A DNA stretch of 49,914 bases, taken from a virus (Duplodnaviria > Heunggongvirae > Uroviricota > Caudoviricetes). Positions within the stretch are counted from its first letter, which is position 1, and every line of letters starts with the position of its first letter. A program made the position numbers and the translations under genes. The stretch is from the IMG/VR virus record IMGVR_UViG_2802429222_000003; one strand, 5' to 3'. The notes beneath the pieces are model-generated. The model did no database searches, had not been told where the DNA came from, and saw only the letters and a program-made list of their open reading frames with translations. Shown piece by piece: positions 1,377-39,308 of this stretch.

Positions 1377-1914
1377 TATATAAAAACATTAAGTTCAATT
1401 CATTGATATTTAATGATAAAAATTATTTTATTGTCTTTTTATTAGCCAAAATCAACTTTATTCAACCGTTTGATTTCATTGACGTTCGTTTTTATTTTGG
1501 GGAAAGGTTTTATCTACCATTTATATCAAAATTACAAGCCTACATTTTATTAACATCTCAATACATGTGAGGCCTTGCAGACCTTTGTGAGGCCTTATGT
1601 GTCTCAGTTTTGTCCCTCTTTTTTGTACTAAAAAACATAGTAATTGAGGATAAACCTCATGCTATTTTCGCTTATATGCCTCTAAAGGCATGGCACTTAA
1701 ATAGATAAAAGCACCACAAAATCATAAAAAAACCACACAGTAAAACCGCAATATGAAACAATAACAGATAATTAAACCAAAAACAGATAGCGCATTGTGA
1801 TAATCATTCAATACTAAACAAAATATAAACAGTGGAGCAATATGTAATTGACTCATTAAGTTAGATATAAAAAATACATATTCAATCATTAAAACGATTG
1901 AATGGAGAACTTTT

Positions 1915-2868
1915 ATGCGGGCGAAACTTCTGGGAATAGTCCTGACAACCCCTATTGCGATCAACTCTTTTGCTTCTACCGAGACTTTATCGTTTACTCC
2001 TGACAACATAAATGCGGACATTAGTCTTGGAACTCTGAGCGGAAAAACAAAAGAGCGTGTTTATCTAGCCGAAGAAGGAAGCCGAAAAGTCAGTCAACTT
2101 GACTGGAAATTCAATAACGCTGCAATTATTAAAGGTGCAATTAATTGGGATTTGATGCCTCAGATATCTATCGGGGCTGCTGGTTGGACAACACTCGGCA
2201 GCCGAGGTGGCAATATGGTCGATCAGGACTGGATGGATTCCAGTAACCCCGGAACCTGGACGGATGAAAGTAGACATCCTGATACACAACTCAATTATGC
2301 CAACGAATTTGATCTGAATATCAAAGGCTGGCTCCTCAACGAACCCAATTACCGCCTGGGACTCATGGCCGGATATCAGGAAAGCCGTTATAGCTTTACA
2401 GCCAGAGGTGGTTCCTATATCTACAGTTCTGAGGAGGGATTCAGAGATGATATCGGCTCCTTCCCGAATGGAGAAAGAGCAATCGGCTACAAACAACGTT
2501 TTAAAATGCCCTACATTGGCTTGACTGGAAGTTATCGTTATGAAGATTTTGAGCTAGGTGGCACATTTAAATACAGCGGCTGGGTGGAATCATCTGATAA
2601 CGATGAACACTATGACCCGGGAAAAAGAATCACTTATCGCAGTAAGGTCAAAGACCAAAATTACTATTCTGTTGCAGTCAATGCAGGTTATTACGTCACA
2701 CCTAACGCAAAAGTTTATGTTGAAGGCGCATGGAATCGGGTTACGAATAAAAAAGGTAATACTTCACTTTATGATCACAATAATAACACTTCAGACTACA
2801 GCAAAAATGGAGCAGGCATAGAAAACTATAACTTCATCACTACTGCTGGTCTTAAGTACACATTTTAA
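1915..2868 (+). CDS. ompT: outer membrane protease OmpT (omptin), 317 aa
   Basis: full-length match to recalled E. coli OmpT sequence (MRAKLLGIVLTTPIAI...AGLKYTF). Confidence 0.95.
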   Translation: MRAKLLGIVLTTPIAINSFASTETLSFTPDNINADISLGTLSGKTKERVYLAEEGSRKVSQLDWKFNNAAIIKGAINWDLMPQISIGAAGWTTLGSRGGNMVDQDWMDSSNPGTWTDESRHPDTQLNYANEFDLNIKGWLLNEPNYRLGLMAGYQESRYSFTARGGSYIYSSEEGFRDDIGSFPNGERAIGYKQRFKMPYIGLTGSYRYEDFELGGTFKYSGWVESSDNDEHYDPGKRITYRSKVKDQNYYSVAVNAGYYVTPNAKVYVEGAWNRVTNKKGNTSLYDHNNNTSDYSKNGAGIENYNFITTAGLKYTF

Positions 2869-3117
2869 GAACGCCAACTAAAATTTCCCCGAGGTGAAAA
2901 TCGCCCCGGGGAATAACTAGCCATTTCAATGTAACAATTAACCCTTAAAATAAACCCAGAAGGTTATTAACTAAATCACATAGAAAACCATCAATTATAG
3001 TGTGTATAAAATAGGCGACAGCAACCCAATTACAAATTAATGGTTCCAGAATATCACATCAAAAAACACGCTATATAATATTATAATTAACATGTAGACA
3101 ACTTGTAATAAATATTA

Positions 3118-3867
3118 TCAGTCAATTGTTTTGTTTATTCCATCTGTGACGCCGATTATTTTCTCAAAATAATGAGATGGCGTGACACCATAATAATCTT
3201 TAAATGCACATATGAAATATGAAGTACTGTTATAGCCACATTTCTGGGCTACGACATTGATAGAATAAGAGTTTGAAGTTATGAGTTTTTTTGCATACCT
3301 CATCCTAGTATCTCTCAATATTTCAGTAAATGACGTTCCTTCATCCCTTAATCTTTTTTTTATTAAACTTTCACTCGTATAAATCAATTCCGCAATATCT
3401 TTTAAATGCCATTGCCGCTCAATATTAAAACTGATTATTCCAGTAATTTTACAGGTAAATGTATTTATATTTGTTAGTATAAATGAATTTACACTTTCGC
3501 GTTTTTTGAACATGGCAAGTAAGGATATACATAGTCTTTCTTTTAACCAAAGGGAGTGTGAGTCTGCTATTTTAATCCCTTCAAACAGAGAAAAAACAAG
3601 CGATAATGGAGGTTCCTCTTCAGCAATATAGCCATTCTTATCAAGAGTAAATTTGCCAGGCAACTCATTATTCACGTCGATAAAAAAGGATAAACATGTT
3701 TTCTTATCTATATCAACAATTCTTAGTTTAGAGGGGCATACTGGTAACTCTCTTCTAATTTTGTCGCTTACAATAAACAATGAATTTTTTTTGAACGAGA
3801 TAACTCTCCTGTTTATAATTAAATCAAATGATTGACAGATGAAAACTACGGAGCAAACATAATCCAT
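3118..3867 (-). CDS. appY: AraC-family transcriptional activator AppY, 249 aa
   Basis: matches recalled AppY sequence and length; adjacent to ompT as in the K-12 DLP12 region; C-terminal AraC HTH. Confidence 0.9.
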
Positions 3868-4543
3868 CTTGCACCTATCATAAAATTAAAACAAGTTGAT
3901 AGTAGTCAAATAACAACCAATTAAATACACAATCATAATCAGGATGATGTGCATTTATATTTTTATACACAAAATTATAGTTTGCAAATTTTAATAAATT
4001 TCATTTAAGATTAAATTATTATATGTATATTGTTTTTTATTCTAACGTATTTCAAAGTTACATTTTTTCAACGATTACTATGCTTTTTATTAACATAAAC
4101 TCACTACAACGCACCTGAAACCTCTTGCTATATATATGTCAACCGTTTGAATTTAAAATAAAAAGAGTATCATTTTTACTTGCATTTCTTATCAAGTCAC
4201 ATTCAACAACAGTAAAAAAACATTATTAGAACCATTCAATTAACAAAAAACCAACATTCAGCTTGCTTAATTTTTCTTTATTAAACGATATTGAAAATCA
4301 ATTGATAAAATACATCTAAACAACCTTTTGGGGCGCAAAAGCATAACATCAAACAAACAAATAACACACCGAAAAAACTCACAATTAATAACCTATGATA
4401 TACATACTGTTTATTATGGTTGAATAAGCCACTCGATATCTGGTGCTACGGAAGTGTCCACACGGTTTAGCAACACCCGATACTTTTTCCTGGCTTCCAG
4501 CAACGGGGTTTCTTCCTCCGTTGCATATACAGCTCACCTTTTT

Positions 4544-29107: not shown

Positions 29108-29601
29108 TGCTGACCCCACAAACAGATTTCACGCTCAATCTCACGACGAGTCATGAGACCTTTCCATTGCTTACCGCCAGCATATGTCCAGCGACGTAGC
29201 TGATCACATGTGCCTTTGATATCGCCCTGGTTTATTTTGCGAAGAAGCGTCGATGTTCTGAAATTGCCAGCGCCCACGTTGTAAACGAACGAGTAAAGAG
29301 CGCCGCGCATTGTTTCCGGTATATCAACTTTTATGTACGGGTTAATTTGTCTGGCGACCGTGGCAAGGTCTTTATTCAGGAGGGCTTTGCATTCTGCTTT
29401 GGTATACGTTTTACCGAGCATGATGTCTTTTCCTGTATGCCCGTGACATACAGTCCATACACCAACAATATCTTTGTATGGTATGTAGCTGACACCTTCC
29501 AGACCATCGTTACCACTTGGGCCAGTGATTAACACTGATGCTATAGCAATTGCTCCGCCACCAATAGCAGCAGCAACGACTTTTCGTAATGATGGAGGCA
29601 T
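29104..29601 (-). CDS. R: SAR endolysin (phage 21 R-type lysozyme, 165 aa)
   Basis: Gly/Ala-rich N-terminal signal-anchor-release segment followed by a T4-lysozyme-like catalytic region; resembles recalled R21 / DLP12 RrrD. Confidence 0.9.
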
Positions 29602-29816
29602 TATTCACCTCTCGCAGCCTTGCGCTTATCTTCTTTAATCTTGAAATAAAGGTTTGTCAGGTACGTCAGCAGGCCAAATACCAGGCTACCCAGCACACCT
29701 ATTGCTGCCCACTGTGAGGGCGTGACTTTATCGAGCAGCTGTAAAAACCAGTAGCCAGCACTGCCTGCGGAGGTGCCGTAGGCAATGCCCGTTGTTAACT
29801 TATCCATGGATTTCAT
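29601..29816 (-). CDS. S: pinholin (phage 21 S-type class II holin, 71 aa, dual start MKSM)
   Basis: matches recalled S21 (...[17 protein letters not shown]...[11 protein letters not shown]...[13 protein letters not shown]). Confidence 0.9.
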
Positions 29817-30004
29817 AGCCTCACCTCCGCAAATAACGGATGGTGTACACGGTTCGGAACGAAGAGGAAAGGTATAGAAGTTACATTAGCGTAAGGCTTG
29901 AACATCTATTCAAAAAGAAAAACGCCAGCGATTATTCTGGCGTAGCTGAAAGCATCATACAATTATCAAATACGAAAATTACAAAATCATTAAAACGCAT
30001 CACG

Positions 30005-30745
30005 TTACATCATGTCTTTTTCTAAAAAAAATCTTGATGAATATTGATGGGGAGGAACACCAAAATATCTTCTGAAAACACTTACAAAATATGACGTGTT
30101 TTCATAACCGCATATCTCAGCAACTTTTCCAACAGAATATAAATTGTAGCTTAATAACCTTTCCGCCATCACCATTCGCTCTTCAAGAATTAATTTACTA
30201 AATGATAAGCCTTCGTGCTTTAATTTTCTTTTTAACAGACTTTCACTCAGATACAGTCTTGAAGATATATCACAAAGTCTCCATGTTGCAGATATATCCG
30301 TGTGAATAATAGCCTTAACTTTACTTCCTAAACTATTAAGACATCCAAATAAAAAACTTTGCACTATTTTCTCTGAAGATAAGATAGCAAGACATGCAAG
30401 TGATATTTGATTTCTAACAAAATCCACAGTTCTGCCATCACAATTCAAGCATGCAATCAAGTTCTTTAACAATGAAAAATCTTCACATTCCACCATCAAG
30501 TATGCCGGATAAAACCTTCTTACAGAAAAAGGTGAGAGTGTGTTGCTTTTAAAGAAATCATTAACTGTTTTCTCTTCAACATCTACGATCATTACATGAT
30601 CTATATTTGATGAAAAAAAATCTTTTAAATTGTAATCAATGAGAACAGCACTTCCTTTTTTAAACAAAATATCTTCTTTACCAATTCGGACATCAAACGA
30701 GTTCAACACCAAAATGATAGAACATATGTATGGCATATTATCCAC
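30005..30745 (-). CDS. AraC-family regulator, AppY/EnvY-like paralog (246 aa)
   Basis: about 40-45% identity by eye to AppY at 3118..3867 across both the N-terminal and HTH regions. Confidence 0.8.
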   Translation of the reverse strand: MDNMPYICSIILVLNSFDVRIGKEDILFKKGSAVLIDYNLKDFFSSNIDHVMIVDVEEKTVNDFFKSNTLSPFSVRRFYPAYLMVECEDFSLLKNLIACLNCDGRTVDFVRNQISLACLAILSSEKIVQSFLFGCLNSLGSKVKAIIHTDISATWRLCDISSRLYLSESLLKRKLKHEGLSFSKLILEERMVMAERLLSYNLYSVGKVAEICGYENTSYFVSVFRRYFGVPPHQYSSRFFLEKDMM

Positions 30746-31087
30746 CTGATATCATTGGGGTTACACCAGGTAAGTATAGGTGGAAAATCAATATTCGCCA
30801 GTTCAACAATAAGGAAAATCTCATTGCATCACAAGTATAAAATTATGTATTTAACTCACAAAGACAAATTATTAAACCAATCTGTTATATTATATATAGC
30901 TGCGTGGAATCATAATATCATATATTTTGACTGGCATGTTTACCAAATTTAAGTTGCATCTCAATGGTTTCTTCAGCGTAAACAGAGTTTTTATACAAAC
31001 TGACACTCTGGGTATCATAGTGTAGTTTTTACGATTGTAAATATCCTGTATGCAGGAACTCATCCTTTTGGATGATATCGCATACAA

Positions 31088-32047
31088 TTAATTTACCATC
31101 AGTCTTAGAGCCAGTTCGTCCGGATAGGGATCGAAGTAATTCTGTGTAAGCAAGTAATCATTAGGATACTCACCCAGATAATGCTTCAGCAGAGTCAACG
31201 GCGCAAGAAGAGGTAATGTGCCAGAACGATAGTTAAGTATAACCTCGCTCAACTCTTTACGCTGGCGTGTACTTAAGTAGTTACTAAAATACCCCTGTAT
31301 ATGCATCAGCACATTCGTGTGATTTTTACGTGATGCAGGTTTTCTGAGAATCGCCATCAGCTTATCACGATACACCTCAAAGTATGATTCAAGATCCGCC
31401 CACTCGTGTATTGCAGCCACAAATGGTCCCATATCTTTATAGCCTGTCTGACTATGCGCCAACAACTGAAGCTTATAACGACTATGAAAAGCCAATAACT
31501 CTCTTCTTGATAATTTCTCCTTGTAAAGGTGATTGAGCTCATGCAAAGCAAAAACTCTTTCAACAAAATTCTCACGAAGCACTGGATCATGTAATCGCCC
31601 ATCCTCTTCAACCGGTAGCCAGGAAAACTTTTCCATCAAAGTGCTCGTAAATAGTCCCACTCCATCTTTACGACCTCGATTACCATTTTCATCATAGACA
31701 CGCACGCGCTCCATGCCACAGCTGGGAGATTTAGCACAAACCACAAACCCCGATACATCCTTTAATTTGTCCATATAAGAACGACTAAACTCTGTCATTC
31801 TCTCTGTCACATCCTCATTCTGGTCGTGGCTGAAACACATCCGTATATTTCCTTGCGTCGAGCGCACAAGACGTAGAGCAGGACGCGGAACTGGCAGCCC
31901 TATAGCCATTTCCGGACATACTGGTCTGAATGTTACCCATTCCACTAATTTGTCCATTAAAAAGTCAGCTCTTTTGTGACCACCATCAAAACGAACAGCA
32001 GAACCGGCCAAACAACCGCTGATTCCAATCACAGGTTTTTTTATCAT
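31088..32047 (-). CDS. DUF523 (TudS-like) / DUF1722 (YbgA-like) fusion protein (319 aa)
   Basis: motifs GISGCLAG..VRFDGGHK, VCPEMAIGLPVPR, KSPSCG consistent with the Cys-containing DUF523 core; C-terminal half resembles YbgA-type domain. Confidence 0.6.
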   Translation of the reverse strand: MIKKPVIGISGCLAGSAVRFDGGHKRADFLMDKLVEWVTFRPVCPEMAIGLPVPRPALRLVRSTQGNIRMCFSHDQNEDVTERMTEFSRSYMDKLKDVSGFVVCAKSPSCGMERVRVYDENGNRGRKDGVGLFTSTLMEKFSWLPVEEDGRLHDPVLRENFVERVFALHELNHLYKEKLSRRELLAFHSRYKLQLLAHSQTGYKDMGPFVAAIHEWADLESYFEVYRDKLMAILRKPASRKNHTNVLMHIQGYFSNYLSTRQRKELSEVILNYRSGTLPLLAPLTLLKHYLGEYPNDYLLTQNYFDPYPDELALRLMVN

Positions 32048-32239
32048 ATCCTCCCCCTTGACTAATTCATTAACACATAAACTGTGTAGTGCACGGAATA
32101 AATTGCCTTTCTGGCGTCATCACTGACAATTTTTCTGTTATGGACTATTCCTAATATAGTATGAAAGTTCTTTAAGTGATCGGTCGTAATCATCTATCTT
32201 TCATACTTACTCTCAACTATCAAAAGTACAGGATTTATT

Positions 32240-32764
32240 ATGAAGTTATGGCCTGTGTTGACTGGCATTGCGCTCTCTTTCACTCTTATAGCATGTAAGG
32301 CCCCGACACCACCTAAAGGTGTGCAGCCGATTACAAATTTTGACGCCAACCGCTACCTCGGAAAATGGTATGAAATAGCTCGCCTCGAGAACCGGTTCGA
32401 ACGTGGTCTGGAACAGGTCAGCGCTACTTATGGAAAACGGAACGACGGAGGGATTCGTGTACTTAACCGTGGATACGATCCAACGAAAAATAAATGGAGC
32501 GAGAGCGAAGGTAAAGCATACTTTACTGGAGATACTAAAACTGCAGCGTTGAAGGTTTCGTTTTTTGGCCCCTTCTATGGTGGCTATAATGTAATCAAAC
32601 TGGATGATGAGTATAAGTATGCTCTTGTCAGTGGTCCGAACAGAGAATACCTATGGATTCTGGCAAGGACCTCAACTATTCCAGATAAAGTAAAAGCAGA
32701 CTATGTGCGAACCGCTCAAAAGTTGGGATTCAATGTCAATGAATTATTATGGGTTAAACAATAA
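32240..32764 (+). CDS. bacterial lipocalin (Blc-like) lipoprotein (174 aa)
   Basis: signal peptide with lipobox LIAC; roughly 60% identity by eye to recalled E. coli Blc (NFDANRYLGKWYEIARLENRFERGLE...KVSFFGPFYGGYNVI...YLWILARTSTI). Confidence 0.85.
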   Translation: MKLWPVLTGIALSFTLIACKAPTPPKGVQPITNFDANRYLGKWYEIARLENRFERGLEQVSATYGKRNDGGIRVLNRGYDPTKNKWSESEGKAYFTGDTKTAALKVSFFGPFYGGYNVIKLDDEYKYALVSGPNREYLWILARTSTIPDKVKADYVRTAQKLGFNVNELLWVKQ

Positions 32765-32792
32765 AATCCCTACCCGAAATGATACTTATTAG

Positions 32793-32819
32793 AAAAAAAC
32801 CAGCCTTTGGGGAGGCTGG
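32793..32819 (-). terminator. intrinsic terminator downstream of Q (candidate tR' of the late operon)
   Basis: minus-strand hairpin CCAGCCTCCCCAAAGGCTGG followed by TTTTTTT. Confidence 0.7.
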
Positions 32820-32919
32820 CTAAATCAGGAAACAAGCTGTTATATGATAATAACTACGTTGCGATTCCAACATTTAAAATGTTAGACTAATGACAATCAG
32901 ACAGCAACTTTTCCTTTAA

Positions 32920-33312
32920 TTATTTCGAACAATCAGCATCCATCTCCAATCGGAGATCCAACACCATCAGCATACCCTCCACTACGCCCTCAGCTTTCTG
33001 GAGCATCCTGCCAACCCAACAATCAGATCGCCCATGCTTACGTGCAAGCGCCATAAAAGTCATGCCGCCGACATAATAGTCCACCAATAAATCATGCAAA
33101 TCGCTGTTGTTCTTTTTCAGACGGGCCATGCACCCGCAAATGATCATCGCGTCATCGTCACAACATTGCGGGCGAGATTTTACTTTTGAAGGAATTAATC
33201 CCTTAAAACCGGCGGCAATGGACGACCAGGTCACATCTTCATGATTATTAGCCGCCCACGCTCCCCAACGCTCAAGAACCATCTGAATATCACGCATCAA
33301 CTTACTCCACAA
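32920..33312 (-). CDS. Q: late antiterminator Q (phage 82 / DLP12 QuuD-like)
   Basis: resembles recalled QuuD ([22 protein letters not shown]...[16 protein letters not shown]); position upstream of tR' and lysis genes; start may be an internal Met. Confidence 0.75.
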
Positions 33313-33519
33313 AACTCAGACCAGAACGCCAATTACAAGCAAAAATCAACAAAACAGTATTAGTTGATTGTTATCTCTGACTTCATACTCCTGCTCCTGT
33401 CAGTGTTTTGGCGTAATTCTTCAGTATTCGGTAATCGGTCAAAACAGAGCCGGGGAAACGATATAAGCGCAGACGCCCCCAGCGGTGGCGAAGAAGTTCT
33501 GCCATATTAAACTCAAACA

Positions 33520-33882
33520 TCATTCATTCCCCATTTCGGTGATGGTCAGTTCCAGCCTCCCACCTTTGGTAACAGGCATCTTCACAACGCGGTAATCAAC
33601 GACCTGAGCATCATCCAGCCAGAAACCTGCTTTAGTGAGTGCGTCAAAAGCGGCTTTTTGCAGATTATCCAGGTCACGGCTACGGCGATCCGGCATGTGG
33701 CACTCAATGCGGATTTTCACAGGCATAGCCAGGCCGATATCCAGCATTGCGTTTTTAATGATTCGGGCGACGTTATCGCGGTATGCCTGCCCCTCTGCAC
33801 TGACGTGCGTGCGCCCGCGATTATGGCGGTAATAGCGATTATTGCTCGGAGGCCAGGGTAATGTGATACTGTAGGTATTCAC
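33520..33882 (-). CDS. rusA: Holliday junction resolvase RusA (120 aa)
   Basis: matches recalled RusA ([23 protein letters not shown]...TITEMGNE). Confidence 0.93.
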
Positions 33883-34169
33883 GCCTTAATAACCCCCTCT
33901 TTCAGCCAGATAACCTGTGTTCTCGCCATACCTTCCAGCGCGCATTCTTTTGCATATGCAGCATCGACAAAATGTGTGCGGCGGTCGATTTCGTCGTGGC
34001 AGGCAGAACATGCAATGGTGGCAATCAGGTCTGGCGGTTTGATACCGGTACCGCACAATCCAGCCAGCCGGATATGTGCCAGTACAGACGTTTCAGAATT
34101 GCCATTACATACGCCAGGGATTCTTACCTGGCATTCCCGACCACGCGCTGCTTTTCTCAAATCAGCCAT
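33879..34169 (-). CDS. DUF1364 Cys-rich nin-region protein (YbcO-like, 96 aa from the internal Met)
   Basis: CxxxxxxC...CSACH pattern; ATGA-type overlap with rusA; DLP12-like gene order. Confidence 0.6.
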
Positions 34170-34331
34170 GATTCCTCCTTGCTGCCAGTCGCAACCATTT
34201 TTTATCAACCAGGCTAGCGGTATATCCGAGCAGTGTTGGTATTTCGGATGGCTTCAGCTCAGGCTTACGCTTACGACGATTTGATACTCTGTAGATGTGT
34301 CCGTTCATGACACGAATAAGCGGTGTAGCCA

Positions 34332-34787
34332 TTACGCCTCCTGCTTGTCGCGGAGCTGCTGGAACTCGCAGCTCTGCGGAATAGTCAGGTGGCAGCCAAT
34401 ATTCACCGCCCAGGCTTCAACCTTACACAGGAAGACATACATCTCTCCGGTATCAAGATCGGAGGTATGGCGTAACGACTGGATAGTGGTGATATCACCG
34501 GTTACGACATCAACCAGGTCTTTGGTTTCATAACCGAGATATGTGTGTTTGAGAGCATCTTTTACCCAAGCTGGAGTGGCGAACGTTTTACCCCTGCTGA
34601 TGAGGTGTTCACTGATTTCGCTGTACCACATGTGGCTGAGTGCATTCTGGGAAAGACTGCGTTTCTCACGCCACGGTTTAAGCACCATGCGAAAGCATTT
34701 GCCCTCCTCCAGATAAGGCTGGATCTGCCGACCGATAGCGGTGAAGTTGCCGCGATGTAATTTGATGCCGTCTTGTGAGAGGTTCAC
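34332..34787 (-). CDS. nin-region protein, YbcN-like (151 aa)
   Basis: length and position match DLP12 ybcN; no motif recognised. Confidence 0.55.
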
Positions 34788-35001
34788 GCTTCACCTCCGC
34801 AGAGGTCAAACGCTAGATGCAAAGAATTGCAGGTGCATTTCTGCATCTGTGAAGGGAGAAGAGAGTTTGGATTGTATGTGCGCATAAACGTCCCCGTTTA
34901 GCGCAGAAGTCACCGGAGTTGTTCAGGCTCCGGTGACATAATTATGCCGTGTTGATTTCCCAAAATCAAAATCGATAGAATTGCTCCTTCTTAAAACACT
35001 T

Positions 35002-35799
35002 TTACTCTCTGGAAGCTTTTCTTATCTCTCTTGGTGTTATATTAAAACGATTATGAAATCTTTCAGTAAAACGAGAAGGACACTTATAACCATTTTCTCT
35101 GGCAATCTCGCTTATAGGTTTTACCGTCGTTTGTATAGCAGACAACGCATTATTTAACCTCACATCGTCCAGTATACTTTGGAAACTTACCCCCTCGCTT
35201 GCTAGACGGCGATGTAATGTAGAAACAGAAATGTAGAGATATCGAGCAACCTTGTTTGCTGTCCATTTTGTGCCGGGTTCGGATAGCAGCAGGTTATAAC
35301 AACGACTTATCAATGATTGTTTACTATATGATAAAAGTAAATGATTAACATGATTCACTCCTAACGAAAGTAGAACGCCCATTGCTAAGTGCTCCTGAAT
35401 TTTAGTTGAGAAGCCTCGGGAAACAGATGTTTTTAGTTGCTCCCAACAATATATTAACTCAGGATTCTGAGGTAAAAAGAAACTTGTTTTGTTACGTATT
35501 TGATCAGTTACCGTATAAAGTTTTTGGAAACTCTCAATTAAATCAATGGGTAAGTAAAGCATTTCTGCAAGATAAAGCCCTGCTTCAGGATAATTCTCAA
35601 TATAAAATTCATAACCACAAGGAAATAATATTATTTGATTATTATCAACAGTTAAAGTATGCGTCTCCCAATTGATAACTTTCTTTCCCTGACGGATACG
35701 ACACAAAGCTGGCATAAGAGGCTTAACCCTATGAATCTCATGATGTTTATGCATCCGTATTTCTTCGATCTTTAAGTTAGTCTTACCTCTTGCCAGCAT
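35002..35799 (-). CDS. AraC-family regulator, YbcM-like (265 aa)
   Basis: C-terminal AraC HTH; AT-rich cargo block. Confidence 0.8.
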
Positions 35800-35808
35800 A
35801 CTCTCACC

Positions 35809-36360
35809 CTACTTTATCTCATAAACTGGTGTTATCTCAGCGGTTGCGATTTTATTAGCATTAAGCATATAACCAACTAACGCTCCGCTGGAGTTAGAAT
35901 CTACAGGAATCTTTTCAGTTTTTAGAGCCCATACTTTAAACTGGTAATGATGTGGTTTATCTCCTTTAGGAGGACATGCGCCACCAAACCCAGCATAGCC
36001 AAAATCATTTCGGCCTTGAACAGCACCAGTCGGCAGTTTTGTTCCATCACGTCTCCCTGCATCAACGGGCAAATATGTTATTGTTGCTGGAATATTAACA
36101 ACAGTCCAATGCCACCAACCACTGCCTGTAGGTGCATCTGGATCATATACAGTTACGGCAAAGCTTTTGGTACCTTCAGGAACACCAGACCAGGTTAATG
36201 AGGGCGATGTATTACCACCTTCACACCCAAATCCAGAAAAGACATGAGACGTTGTAAGTTGCTCTCCTGTTTTTATTTCATTACTAGTGACCTGAAATGC
36301 TGCAGCCTGCGCAGAAAATGTTATGAATGCCAATACAGTTGAAACGATAAGTGTTTTCAT
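35809..36360 (-). CDS. PEBP-family periplasmic protein, YbcL-like (183 aa)
   Basis: signal peptide; PEBP signatures DPDAP and HHY. Confidence 0.85.
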   Translation of the reverse strand: MKTLIVSTVLAFITFSAQAAAFQVTSNEIKTGEQLTTSHVFSGFGCEGGNTSPSLTWSGVPEGTKSFAVTVYDPDAPTGSGWWHWTVVNIPATITYLPVDAGRRDGTKLPTGAVQGRNDFGYAGFGGACPPKGDKPHHYQFKVWALKTEKIPVDSNSSGALVGYMLNANKIATAEITPVYEIK

Positions 36361-36577
36361 AAAAACCTCTTTGTTATGACCTATCGTTATTTTATTTGAT
36401 ATTCCTTTATCTCATTATGCATAAAGGCGCAATGTTTATGCAAAAGCAATCACAATTGTACCCCCAACCCAATTATTTGCCACAATATACACAAAGCACA
36501 TTGATACTATCTAAAAACTCTGCTTTATTATTAGTAATACCTACGAAAGTCGGTGTTATTTTTTAACCTACCATTCA

Positions 36578-36625
36578 AAATACGTGACATACACCATTTT
36601 GCTCATAATAATTTGTCACGTATTT
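36578..36625. repeat. perfect 12-bp inverted repeat AAATACGTGACA / TGTCACGTATTT with 24-bp spacer
   Basis: read directly at 36578..36589 and 36614..36625, between the recombinase and PEBP genes. Confidence 0.85.
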
Positions 36626-36824
36626 TCAGTATTTGAATCTGCGACCAAGAGTTCTCACCTAACAAATGATTAAGATTGTATAGCTCATTTACTACCCCAA
36701 TACAGCCGTACAAAACTCGCTTGTGGGAGCAAACAAAGTAATTACCCATTAAGTTTCGTCAAAGATAATTAATTCTGTCTTGCACTTTATCACCATAGCA
36801 TAACTTAAAATCCGAGATCATTAT

Positions 36825-38351
36825 TTAGAAATAAATCTCACCATCAACCATATATTTGAGAGCACTTATCGCCTGCTGGGCGGATATTACTTTCATTAAA
36901 GGATAGTGTTTAAAAACAATGCCATTCATAAAATAGATATCACAGGTTTTATTATCCGTATTAATTATGATTTTTTCGAATGTTTTATAGGCAAGTGTAC
37001 GGCATAACTCTCGTCCATTTTTACTGGTTAAGTCAATAGCATAAAAATCACTGAATGAATTTACACCTTTACTCTTCAAAGTTTTCAATGATACCGAAGC
37101 CCTTCGTAATTCCTTATCTAATAGTCTTATTTTCTCTGCTATAGCGGTAACTTCAGGCGCGACAGACAATGCAACGATTAAATTATTAATTTTCATCTGA
37201 AGCTCAATAATTTTTAACTCTAAAGTTTCATTAGCATCTTTCTTGTTTTCAACTGGTTGAATTTTGCTACAATTAAAAAGCAATTCATTAATGATATTAT
37301 AATCAACCAAATCTCTTTTTATTGATGGCCTGTCACATCGATGTAATCTTCTCATCGGACAAACATAATAGCCATGCAAACTTCCAGATACCGCATGAAC
37401 AATCATGGTATTACCACAAGCCTCACACTTCATAACTGTTCGAAGTAGATTTATTAGCATAGGATTCTTGCTACTATTGCTAATACCAAAAGGTGCCAAC
37501 CGAATTTCCTGTACAGCGTAAAACAAATCATCTGATATGACTCTGGGATAATAGCCAGCGATTTCACTTATCCCTTTCCCTCTTGCACGATATGAAGGTA
37601 CGCATATACCTATCAGAGCTTTATTCGCTAATAATTTTTCAATTACAGAAGGTCCCCATGCACTTTCTTTTCCTGAGAAATTCTTTACAGCATGATCATT
37701 TAAATACTTGGCTATTGCATTCAATGAGCGCCTTTCCATCCTGAGTTTAAAAATTAGCTCAATAGTTTTCACCCTGTCGGGGTCTGGAACAAAAGCCGTT
37801 CTTTTGTCATCTAAGGAGAGCCATCTCGGACAAGACGCCGTCATAATCGTACCTGATTCCAGTGCATCCTGCCGTTTTTTCTTCCATGATAATTTAACCC
37901 GACTTGACTTTATCTCGCTTTCTTCATTTGCCCTTTGTGCTATAAGTATGGCTTTTATTAATGAATATGGCTCATTCAAAGAGTCAATATTATAGACTGT
38001 ATTGTCGCAAAGAGTTATAACATCAATACCGTGATTCAAAATCAATTTCAGACGTTCAATCGCTTCACCGACTTTTTCTCTTGAAAGTCTGTCCAGACTT
38101 TCAACTAACAATGTAGTTCCTGGCAATATATAACCATGCTCTATAGCATCTAAAAATTCCGAAAAAGCTCCTGATTGTGCATGCTTTCCTTTGAATGCAC
38201 TTAATCCTAAATCTTCATATGTTATGGTATCAAGATAATAATCACTATTTACCTTTAACCATTCAGCAATAAGTCTTCTCTGTCGGTTTAATGAGTCACC
38301 AGACATCTGACCTGGTGATGAAAATCGCATATATGCTATGGCTTTTTTCAT
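36825..38351 (-). CDS. large serine recombinase, YbcK-like (508 aa)
   Basis: N-terminal resolvase-type domain (YMRFSSPGQ), C-terminal Cys cluster CEACGN...YYVCPMRRLHRC. Confidence 0.8.
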   Translation of the reverse strand: MKKAIAYMRFSSPGQMSGDSLNRQRRLIAEWLKVNSDYYLDTITYEDLGLSAFKGKHAQSGAFSEFLDAIEHGYILPGTTLLVESLDRLSREKVGEAIERLKLILNHGIDVITLCDNTVYNIDSLNEPYSLIKAILIAQRANEESEIKSSRVKLSWKKKRQDALESGTIMTASCPRWLSLDDKRTAFVPDPDRVKTIELIFKLRMERRSLNAIAKYLNDHAVKNFSGKESAWGPSVIEKLLANKALIGICVPSYRARGKGISEIAGYYPRVISDDLFYAVQEIRLAPFGISNSSKNPMLINLLRTVMKCEACGNTMIVHAVSGSLHGYYVCPMRRLHRCDRPSIKRDLVDYNIINELLFNCSKIQPVENKKDANETLELKIIELQMKINNLIVALSVAPEVTAIAEKIRLLDKELRRASVSLKTLKSKGVNSFSDFYAIDLTSKNGRELCRTLAYKTFEKIIINTDNKTCDIYFMNGIVFKHYPLMKVISAQQAISALKYMVDGEIYF

Positions 38352-38605
38352 GGTGACACCTGCTAACGTATGCTTTTATAAACCTTAGTGGTGGGATATA
38401 ATTTTTGTTTAATTTTTATTTAAAAAGACAATTAAGGTCACATTATCTTGAATATACAACAATAATCGTATTGCAATTTTCTTACGCCATAATCTTGAAA
38501 GCACAAAAGAATACATAAAAAATAAAGACATTAACAAAAAGCATAAAACGAGGCTCATATAAATATAAGAGCCTCCATATTTTAGTCGTTTAGAAACAAA
38601 TTATT

Positions 38606-38938
38606 TTAATGTGGTGTGCTTCGTGACAATAAATTAATAACCAACACACCGGCACAAATCAACATCATGCCTATAATGGCTGGCAGGTCCAGCCGTTGGC
38701 CGAAAAGTCCCCATGACAGTAAGCTAATCAGGACAATACCGACTCCTGACCAGATAGCATAAGCAATCCCTGTAGGAATATAAGCCAGCGTCTGAGCTAA
38801 TAACCAGAATGATGCACAATAACAAATAATTGTACCAACAGATGGCCATAACCGTGTAAAACCTTCTGAAAACTTCATTAAGGTTGTACCAATGACCTCT
38901 GCAAGTATTGCACCACCAAGATAAATATAAGGGTTCAT
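38606..38938 (-). CDS. emrE: small multidrug resistance efflux transporter EmrE (110 aa)
   Basis: from the internal Met the product MNPYIYLGGAILAEVIGTTLMKFSEGF... matches recalled EmrE; track ORF has an 18-codon extension. Confidence 0.9.
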   Translation of the reverse strand: MNPYIYLGGAILAEVIGTTLMKFSEGFTRLWPSVGTIICYCASFWLLAQTLAYIPTGIAYAIWSGVGIVLISLLSWGLFGQRLDLPAIIGMMLICAGVLVINLLSRSTPH

Positions 38939-39005
38939 AGCATATTCTTTCCTGTTCAAACTGGAGAGAATTGTACTACAGTTTGAACTCAACTCACCTG
39001 TTTCA

Positions 39006-39308
39006 TCATTGTGTACCCATTGATGTTCTTTTATATACCCTCAATACCCGTTTCATCGCGGCACTCTGGCGACACTCCTTAAAAATCAGATTCGTGCTCA
39101 CCTTTCCTTCCCGTTCTTCTCTGGTAGCGAACCGGTAATACACCGTTCGCCAGACCTTACCATCAACGACCAGGATTCCTGCCCGCGCCATTTTAGCCGC
39201 AGCCTGATTTATGCTGGTTACGGTTGCGCCTGTTACCGCGGCAACGTCCTGTGCACAGAAGCTCTTATGCGTCCCCAGGTAATGAATAATTGCCTCTTTG
39301 CCCGTCAT
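39006..39308 (-). CDS. ren: Ren exclusion protein
   Basis: MTGKEAIIHYLGTH... similar to recalled lambda Ren. Confidence 0.85.
   Translation of the reverse strand: MTGKEAIIHYLGTHKSFCAQDVAAVTGATVTSINQAAAKMARAGILVVDGKVWRTVYYRFATREEREGKVSTNLIFKECRQSAAMKRVLRVYKRTSMGTQ

Follow-up and report, generated by a model that had tools for sequence, protein, structure and literature searches.

Introduction

RudS was described by Jamontas et al. (NAR 2024) as a fusion of a TudS domain with a DUF1722 domain that takes 4-thiouridine (s4U) out of tRNA (PMC11417400). According to the same paper, s4U at position 8 (s4U8) is a near-UV chromophore whose crosslink to C13 leads to growth delay and accumulation of guanosine tetraphosphate (ppGpp); tRNA s4U was lowered in Escherichia coli by all six RudS enzymes expressed, including the phage enzyme RudS_vir, DUF1722 mediated tRNA binding in RudS_KT, and overexpression of RudS_KT diminished the growth delay induced by ultraviolet A (UVA) (PMC11417400). 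Here, we analyzed a prophage-borne member of this family together with the two genes that accompany it, which encode a lipocalin of the Blc type and an AraC-family regulator. The three genes lie between the late antiterminator gene Q and the holin gene S, at positions 29817-32919 of the IMG/VR virus record IMGVR_UViG_2802429222_000003, and the whole 49,914-nucleotide stretch of DNA that was analyzed is referred to as the window.

Phage RudS and its cassette are already known from the literature, and the locus is no discovery. An earlier note on this DNA was prepared from the sequence alone, and what it described is not a new lead, since RudS_vir was described in 2024 and blc had been listed in 2020 among the morons of gut lambda phages, being present in more than half of 19 such phages (Mathieu et al. 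2020). RudS_vir, which is gp66 of the lambda-like phage 1H12, has the same 319 residues in length, the same Cys12, Cys44, and Cys110, and the same cassette order, whereas the gene in the window is a different allele (8% nucleotide divergence, synonymous divergence (dS) of 0.30) and belongs to a prophage backbone at the DLP12 site. The chromosomal RudS proteins, such as Salmonella ORF319/STM1389 (RudS_ST) and the product of the Enterobacter cloacae rudS that stands beside a MerR regulator gene, show the same fusion and length with 66-76% identity. The RudS paper treats the viral gene by itself and does not discuss where it lies in the genome, how it is regulated, or how prevalent it is in E. 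coli (PMC11417400), and E. coli is said to lack RudS both there (PMC11417400) and in a 2026 review.

The position of the genes also has precedents. The cargo genes nmpC of DLP12 and stx of the Stx phages occupy the same slot downstream of pR'/tR', with the same logic of Q-dependent read-through, and nmpC is antisense to the late transcript, as is blc, the first gene of the block. The products differ, being a porin and a toxin in those phages and a tRNA de-modification enzyme, a lipocalin, and a regulator here. AppY is encoded by DLP12 and is prophage-borne like the regulator described below, although the latter is placed in the Q-S slot and not in the tail-fibre/att region. What we add to these systems is the prevalence of rudS in E. 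coli, the chromosomal blc-(merR-transthyretin)-rudS synteny with loss of the MerR gene in the phage version, and the composite, terminator-bounded architecture of the block.

Results

The block is a discrete cassette between Q and the holin gene

The window contains what appears to be an intact lambdoid prophage, located at the DLP12 site of E. coli; its late genes run along the minus strand, and, unlike DLP12, it has complete head, tail, and lysis gene sets. The flanks and most of the early genes were 98-99% identical to K-12 DLP12, and the DLP12-like stretches were 1557-4524, on the ompT/appY side, and 32938-39219, from ybcK through quuD. This homology ended at 32938 and restarted at 29827, and because of this break and return, we regard the interval as a discrete cassette that, as judged from the alignment, replaces the nmpC interval of K-12 DLP12. 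The upstream boundary is Q itself (32920-33297, minus strand; PF06530, 173 bits), a quuD allele with 89% nucleotide identity to K-12 quuD up to 32938 and a distant relative of Q21 (PDB 6p18). The downstream boundary is the essD-type holin gene S (29601-29816, minus strand; PF04971, 120.9 bits), and the K-12 homology resumes 11 bp 5' of its start codon. Q, the P21-type holin, the lysozyme, and Rz genes are all on the minus strand.

Within these limits, the guanine plus cytosine (GC) content was 38%, against 48% for the whole window, and it differed by gene, with 0.31 for the araC-like gene and 0.43-0.44 for rudS and blc. The arrangement set out in the earlier note was found again at its coordinates: three AT-rich genes lie between the Q-proximal terminator and the holin gene, of which rudS and the araC-like gene are on the minus strand, like Q and the genes for the holin, lysozyme, and Rz, and blc is on the plus strand. 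The view that this is the Q-to-S cargo slot also agreed with our comparison, as nmpC occupies the same interval in K-12. The block has the traits of a Q-S moron, i.e., it is placed between Q/tR' and S, its GC content is deviant, and it is replaceable, with nmpC in its place in K-12.

The fusion protein is predicted to be a tRNA 4-thiouridine desulfidase

The middle gene, rudS (31088-32047, minus strand), encodes a TudS(DUF523)-DUF1722 fusion of 319 amino acids. The N-terminal part matched PF04463 (2-thiouracil desulfurase) over residues 7-149 with 137.9 bits, against a cut-off of 34.7, and the C-terminal part matched PF08349 (DUF1722) over residues 192-309 with 138 bits, against a cut-off of 22.5. 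Together with the matches of the lipocalin to PF08212 and of the regulator to PF12833/PF00165, these profile scores, all well above the curated cut-offs, supported the domain assignments made previously. The TudS domain is complete and aligns to the TudS structure 6z92, and the protein was 93% identical and 97% similar to RudS_vir (phage 1H12, NC_049947, gp66) over all 319 residues.

The cysteines of the Fe-S cluster, Cys12, Cys44, and Cys110, are present, and these are the positions tabulated for RudS_vir and RudS_ST (Table 1 in PMC11417400). The other catalytic residues were identified by reading the translation, and their distances from the cysteines were used to match them to the RudS_KT mutagenesis table; Glu46 (C44-P-E46), Arg55, Ser107, and Ser109 (K106-S107-P-S109-C110) were the counterparts of E51, R60, S111, and S113 of RudS_KT, where mutations abolished the activity (PMC11417400). 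We assign the fusion protein, on this sequence evidence, to RudS, the predicted function being that of a [4Fe-4S] tRNA 4-thiouridine desulfidase. The former suggestion of thiolated nucleotides or tRNA as possible substrates of the DUF523 enzyme fits with its 93% identity to RudS_vir, which was shown to lower tRNA s4U (PMC11417400).

The lipocalin gene is a paralogue of the E. coli blc

The gene next to Q is blc (32240-32764, plus strand), convergent with the late transcript, and it encodes an outer-membrane lipoprotein of 174 amino acids with the lipocalin domain PF08212 (146.5 bits). The protein passed the NCBIfam Blc subfamily model NF007786 (313.5 bits, against a cut-off of 267), and it matched E. 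coli Blc in PDB (3mbt, E = 5e-68). A lipobox, L-I-A-C at residues 16-19, was read in MKLWPVLTGIALSFTLIAC, and it aligned with the lipobox of K-12 Blc. E. coli Blc (b4149, ampC-adjacent; PDB 1qwd, 2aco, and 3mbt) is of the same family and size and has the same lipoprotein signal as the phage protein. As the identity to K-12 Blc was only 59%, the phage gene is a paralogue, that is, a second, horizontally acquired lipocalin and not a copy of the host gene. Its identity to the rudS-adjacent Blc of E. cloacae was 81%, and these two values, together with the different context, ruled out orthology with the ampC-linked blc.

The regulator belongs to the YdeO/AppY/GadX group

The gene next to the holin (30005-30736, minus strand) encodes an AraC-family regulator of 243 amino acids (PF12833/PF00165). 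Its ATG start is that of RefSeq, and the mechanical list of open reading frames (ORFs) extends the frame to a GTG at 30745. The C-terminal double helix-turn-helix and the collinear N-terminal homology place it in the YdeO/AppY/GadX subgroup of the AraC/XylS family. It was 32% identical to AppY and 32% identical to YdeO, both alignments being collinear from residue 1, the best PDB match was the DNA-binding domain of GadX, and the best NCBIfam match was YdeO, with 127 bits, under the cut-off of 348. It shares with these xenogeneic AraC stress regulators a full-length collinear homology, a similar size, and an AT-rich gene. As it fell below every equivalog cut-off, its identification as an orthologue of AppY, YdeO, or GadX was refuted. 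The protein is a member of phrog_1450, and the phage record of O157:H7 (ATCC 43895) gave a single, partial match with 41% identity over residues 136-235.

The gene had been described as AppY-like, and the family resemblance stands; however, it is not appY, as the true gene, 100% identical to that of K-12, was found at 3118-3867 (minus strand), at the far end of the prophage. There, appY adjoins an ORF of 317 amino acids (1915-2868, plus strand) in the ompT position, in a flank 98.8% identical to K-12. The prophage contains three AraC-family regulator genes, i.e., appY, ybcM (35002-35799), and the gene of the Q-S slot.

The block is probably composite, with a chromosomal blc-rudS pair

To look at the origin of the block, it was compared with 64 chromosomal rudS loci from other Enterobacteriaceae. 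RudS homologues with 66-76% identity to the phage protein were encoded in Citrobacter, Enterobacter, Leclercia, Kluyvera, Klebsiella oxytoca, Pectobacterium, and other chromosomes, the closest being 75-76% identical. A blc paralogue was found divergently upstream of rudS in 41 of the 64 loci, and the order in 36 of these 41 was blc on the minus strand followed by a MerR/MlrA-like regulator gene, a transthyretin-family gene, and rudS, all on the plus strand. In three further loci, blc and rudS were separated by a single gene, either that for the regulator or the transthyretin-family gene, and in the remaining two, from Citrobacter sedlakii and Citrobacter sp. JGM124, blc was directly beside rudS, as in the phage. 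In 14 of the 64 loci, rudS was located behind a cyclopropane-fatty-acid-synthase-like gene and a DUF3833 gene. The four-gene cluster is conserved among Enterobacter, Leclercia, and their relatives, as in locus L013 (4018-6960) and 35 similar ones (e.g., L016-L018 and L028); L010 (5283-6960) was noted with them. Chromosomal rudS genes are thus accompanied by a MerR/MlrA-like regulator gene, usually with the transthyretin-like gene, between blc and rudS, or by the cyclopropane-fatty-acid-synthase-DUF3833 cluster, whereas the phage version is without these genes. The Blc paralogue, the transthyretin-like gene product, and RudS may take part in one common response to light or stress; mention of the Blc paralogue or of a transthyretin-like (HIUase-family) gene was not found in the available text of the RudS paper (PMC11417400).

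The araC-like gene was absent from all 64 chromosomal loci, and in phages ev099 and PhiR70_1, homologues with 52% identity occupy the tail-fibre/att slot. Unlike chromosomal rudS, the phage gene stands beside this AraC-type regulator gene, in what is presumably a Q-controlled late operon. The chromosomal blc-rudS synteny, the 81% identity of Blc, and the absence of the araC-like gene from the 64 loci indicate, at the level of sequence comparison, that the block is composite, with a blc-rudS pair derived from an enterobacterial chromosome without the MerR regulator, and an AraC-type moron added separately. The intergenic DNA between the phage blc and rudS did not align with that of C. sedlakii, even though the direct arrangement is the same, and C. 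sedlakii as the donor lineage was unsupported.

Terminators and intergenic regions of the block

The Q-proximal leader (32822-32919, minus strand), which presumably contains pR' and a Q-utilization site, was 97% conserved among four prophages and phages. A weak candidate for pR', TTGCTG-17-TAACAT at about 32906-32878, was read by eye and was below the threshold of the promoter scan. The leader is followed by an intrinsic terminator of the tR' type (32791-32821, minus strand), with a 9-bp GC-rich stem at 32821-32798 and then a run of seven T (U7 in the RNA), as the earlier note had proposed. The leader with tR' folded at -24 kcal/mol (z = -3.8), and the hairpin was unchanged in the four aligned relatives. 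A second intrinsic terminator was located 3' of the regulator gene and about 100 bp before S (29913-29943, minus strand); it has a 7-bp stem (29943-29922) with five GC pairs and a T-rich tail, and its fold is weak (z = -1.55). In a Rfam scan of 29400-33500, only sub-threshold matches were obtained, the best merely overlapping the tR' hairpin, and no known RNA family was detected.

The divergent intergenic region between blc and rudS (32048-32239), in which putative promoters for both genes are presumed, was 192 bp long in the window and in 79 of the 79 IMG/VR loci where it could be measured, and its sole sigma-70-like site (32216-32189) is weak. The region upstream of the regulator gene (30737-31087) is AT-rich (32% GC), with TTTACA-16-TATGAT at 31041-31014 as the best promoter-like site, and the spacer varied between alleles, with gaps of 352, 354, and 409 bp. 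An operator shared by the upstream regions of blc/rudS and of the regulator gene was considered and rejected, as only short two-copy repeats were found, the best of them with 17 of 20 nucleotides identical; by a hand estimate, about one such repeat is expected by chance per 3.1 kb of AT-rich DNA. The two copies of this 20-nucleotide element, TATAATATAACAGATTGGTT and TATCATATAACAGCTTGTTT (minus strand), are at 30875-30894 and 32830-32849, one about 140 bp upstream of the araC-like gene and the other directly upstream of the tR' hairpin. The leader of the window and the K-12 quuD-nmpC spacer had only patchy similarity, e.g., the shared ATATAACAG; this is the core of the 20-nucleotide element, which also occurs downstream of quuD in K-12, and its position in the Q-proximal leader is worth noting.

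The cassette is common in E. coli and under purifying selection

Among 5426 complete E. coli genomes, 1156 had matches to the 3.1-kb block, with coverage of at least 80% of the block in 992, and rudS was near full length in 1064 (about 20%), including strain HS. Full-length rudS was present in only 12 of 50,697 phage records, which were those of the 1H12 group and IdasGreatGrand. The cargo had been called unusual, and this holds when phages as a whole are considered, though not within E. coli. In IMG/VR, rudS was found in 127 contigs, and the gene order was counted in the best 80 of them: 71 showed Q, blc (-), rudS (+), araC (+), and holin, and the regulator gene was absent in five. The same order was found in isolated plaque-forming phages, i.e., the 1H12 family and IdasGreatGrand. 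The cassette followed the same Q allele in prophages of more than one backbone, DLP12-like as well as Qin-like. Literature searches for this gene combination in prophages (lipocalin with DUF1722/YbgA) or for IdasGreatGrand gave nothing relevant.

Compared with the 1H12 allele, the ratio of nonsynonymous to synonymous divergence (dN/dS) was 0.07 for blc, 0.11 for rudS, and 0.28 for the araC-like gene, at dS of 0.20-0.34, and all three genes are under purifying selection. In the counterparts of 29817-32919 in other E. coli genomes, the insertion sequences (IS) IS1, IS2, IS3, and IS200/IS605 often land in the AT-rich cassette. The araC-like gene of strain EC361 is replaced by IS1, and in the BL21 lineage, IS3 has left the first 147 nucleotides of rudS beside Q and an intact blc, in a Qin-like prophage; examples are T7Express/BL21 NZ_CP053597.1 (locus L070, 5001-5864) and BL21 NZ_CP053601.1. 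Common expression hosts hold, in this way, a remnant of the rudS cassette. Two short contigs (L056 and L061) of the metagenome-assembled genome 'Candidatus Nanosynbacter sp.' D148_maxbin.008 carried Q, blc, rudS, araC, and holin genes with 93-100% protein identity, and this is almost certainly contamination from binning.

Other features of the prophage

The early-right region at 32938-39219, from renD fragment 2, directly right of IS3C, to quuD, was 98.7% identical to K-12 DLP12 and contains, by the K-12 annotation, emrE, ybcK, ybcL, ybcM, ybcN, ninE, ybcO, rusA, and ylcG. The window resembles an undecayed relative of DLP12 with further morons, namely the EmrE efflux pump, the PEBP-family protein YbcL, and the YbcM regulator. 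None of the three proteins of the block was matched by PADLOC, and they do not represent a known defence system; in PHROGs, all three fall in families of unknown function.

Discussion

Our results suggest that the interval between Q and S is a moron cassette made of two units, and we consider this, including the co-transcription and the consequence for s4U, the likely explanation of the locus. The first unit would be the divergent blc-rudS pair taken from an enterobacterial chromosome, and the second, a very AT-rich AraC gene of the YdeO/AppY type with its own upstream region and terminator. S appears to lack a conserved promoter, and the lysis genes would be reached from pR' only by way of the block. 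We infer late read-through of the block from the K-12 homology, which returns only 11 bp ahead of S, and from the identical layout in isolated phages; since these form plaques with the same gene order, the late transcript must cross the block in viable phages. RNA polymerase modified by Q would proceed past tR', antisense over blc, sense over rudS and the regulator gene, and past the second terminator to S, R, and Rz, and upon induction rudS and the regulator gene would be co-transcribed with the late operon, with their mRNA raised. As blc is on the strand opposite to late transcription, it needs a promoter of its own, and it would be a classical moron expressed in the lysogen. The TudS domain of RudS would turn s4U8 of tRNA back to uridine while the DUF1722 domain holds the tRNA, and s4U in host tRNA would fall as a result, so that the growth delay under near-UV (UVA) light and the stringent response would both be weaker. 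These effects would occur in the lysogen if rudS has its own promoter, and in late lytic growth in any case. Our inferences concern the position of pR', the read-through, whether the lysogen expresses the genes, what the regulator targets, and the benefit to fitness.

Several observations weigh against this explanation. The block is dispensable and able to decay, and insertions or truncations by IS1, IS2, IS3, and IS200 are common in it, including in BL21. The number of sigma-70-like sites in the block was 12, against 12.2 in shuffled sequences, and no promoter was established. The tRNA desulfidation by RudS_vir was below that of the other RudS despite good expression, and its lag on free 4-thiouracil was the shortest among the RudS enzymes (PMC11417400), and so tRNA may not be the sole substrate of RudS_vir. 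In addition, existing s4U8-C13 crosslinks are not repairable by RudS, and a purely late enzyme would give limited UVA protection.

One alternative, which we regard as unlikely, is that rudS is chiefly a lytic auxiliary gene, made only from the Q-antiterminated transcript and sustaining late protein synthesis after induction by UV/SOS, through stripping of s4U or salvage of thiolated uracils. The gene is on the late strand downstream of pR'/tR', with no predicted terminator between tR' and rudS, the chromosomal MerR/MlrA-type regulator is lost in the phage, and no convincing sigma-70 promoter was seen in the 192-bp region upstream of rudS; moreover, UV damage precedes the induction of lambdoid prophages, and near-UV light is absorbed by s4U as the chromophore (PMC11417400). 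However, crosslinks already formed would not be reversed by RudS, late expression leaves a short time for remodelling of the tRNA pool, and the 192-bp region from which rudS and blc diverge is strictly conserved, which suggests retained promoters. Plaque-forming lambdoid phages with other cargo in this slot, and nmpC in K-12, also indicate that the block can be dispensed with.

It seems improbable that blc and rudS are controlled locally by the AraC-like protein, as a substitute for the lost MerR, with the three genes forming one regulated unit. This would account for their co-linearity in 71 of the 80 viral contigs and at least 992 E. coli genomes, and the chromosomal loci have a regulator gene beside rudS, a different one from that of the phage. 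Against it, the gene was missing from 64 of the 64 chromosomal blc/rudS loci, blc-rudS variants without it exist (5 of 80 contigs and strain EC361), other phages that have neither blc nor rudS carry homologues of it, its GC content differs sharply from that of blc and rudS, and no repeat beyond chance was common to the two upstream regions. The nearest characterized relatives, YdeO, AppY, and GadX, act on host acid and stress regulons in the sources available. By analogy with AppY and YdeO, we propose host stress regulons, rather than blc/rudS, as the probable targets of the regulator; the chromosomal loci and some of the phage variants do not have its gene.

Even less probable, to our judgement, is that the enzyme acts mainly on free thiolated bases or nucleotides, in a TudS-like salvage of 4-thiouracil and 4-thio-UMP, and not on tRNA. 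The complete TudS domain, aligned to 6z92, and the behavior of RudS_vir, with the shortest 4-thiouracil lag among RudS and a relatively low tRNA activity (PMC11417400), would agree with such a role. Nonetheless, no RudS supported growth on thiouracil as TudS did, all of them lowered tRNA s4U, and the fused DUF1722 mediates tRNA binding in RudS_KT (PMC11417400). Finally, that the block is neutral DNA hitch-hiking in a permissive slot, with no function for phage or host, as its frequent IS insertions and truncations and the acceptance of unrelated cargo by the slot might suggest, is very improbable in view of the dN/dS of 0.07-0.28 at dS of 0.2-0.34, the order and spacing kept in hundreds of genomes with DLP12-like and Qin-like backbones, and the intact catalytic residues.

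The two-unit moron cassette in the Q-S slot remains the favored explanation, and it bears on work with E. coli itself. As 1064 of 5426 genomes carry a near-full-length prophage rudS and BL21 derivatives keep the 147-nucleotide remnant, the choice of strain is important in studies of s4U, UVA growth delay, and tRNA modification. The chromosomal linkage of the Blc paralogue and rudS suggests that both serve one stress response, and a tRNA de-modification enzyme in a phage late operon is a simple case of a virus editing the host epitranscriptome. We tentatively put forward a further-reaching proposal, of which we remain doubtful, that blc-rudS is an enterobacterial module for near-UV and envelope stress, captured without MerR, rewired to Q-dependent late transcription, and fired by SOS/UV. 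If true, about one fifth of E. coli strains would carry a prophage-controlled eraser of tRNA s4U, by which the near-UV chromophore would be stripped, the s4U-triggered stringent response blunted, and phage late translation protected, and the UVA physiology and tRNA modification levels of E. coli would depend on prophage content.

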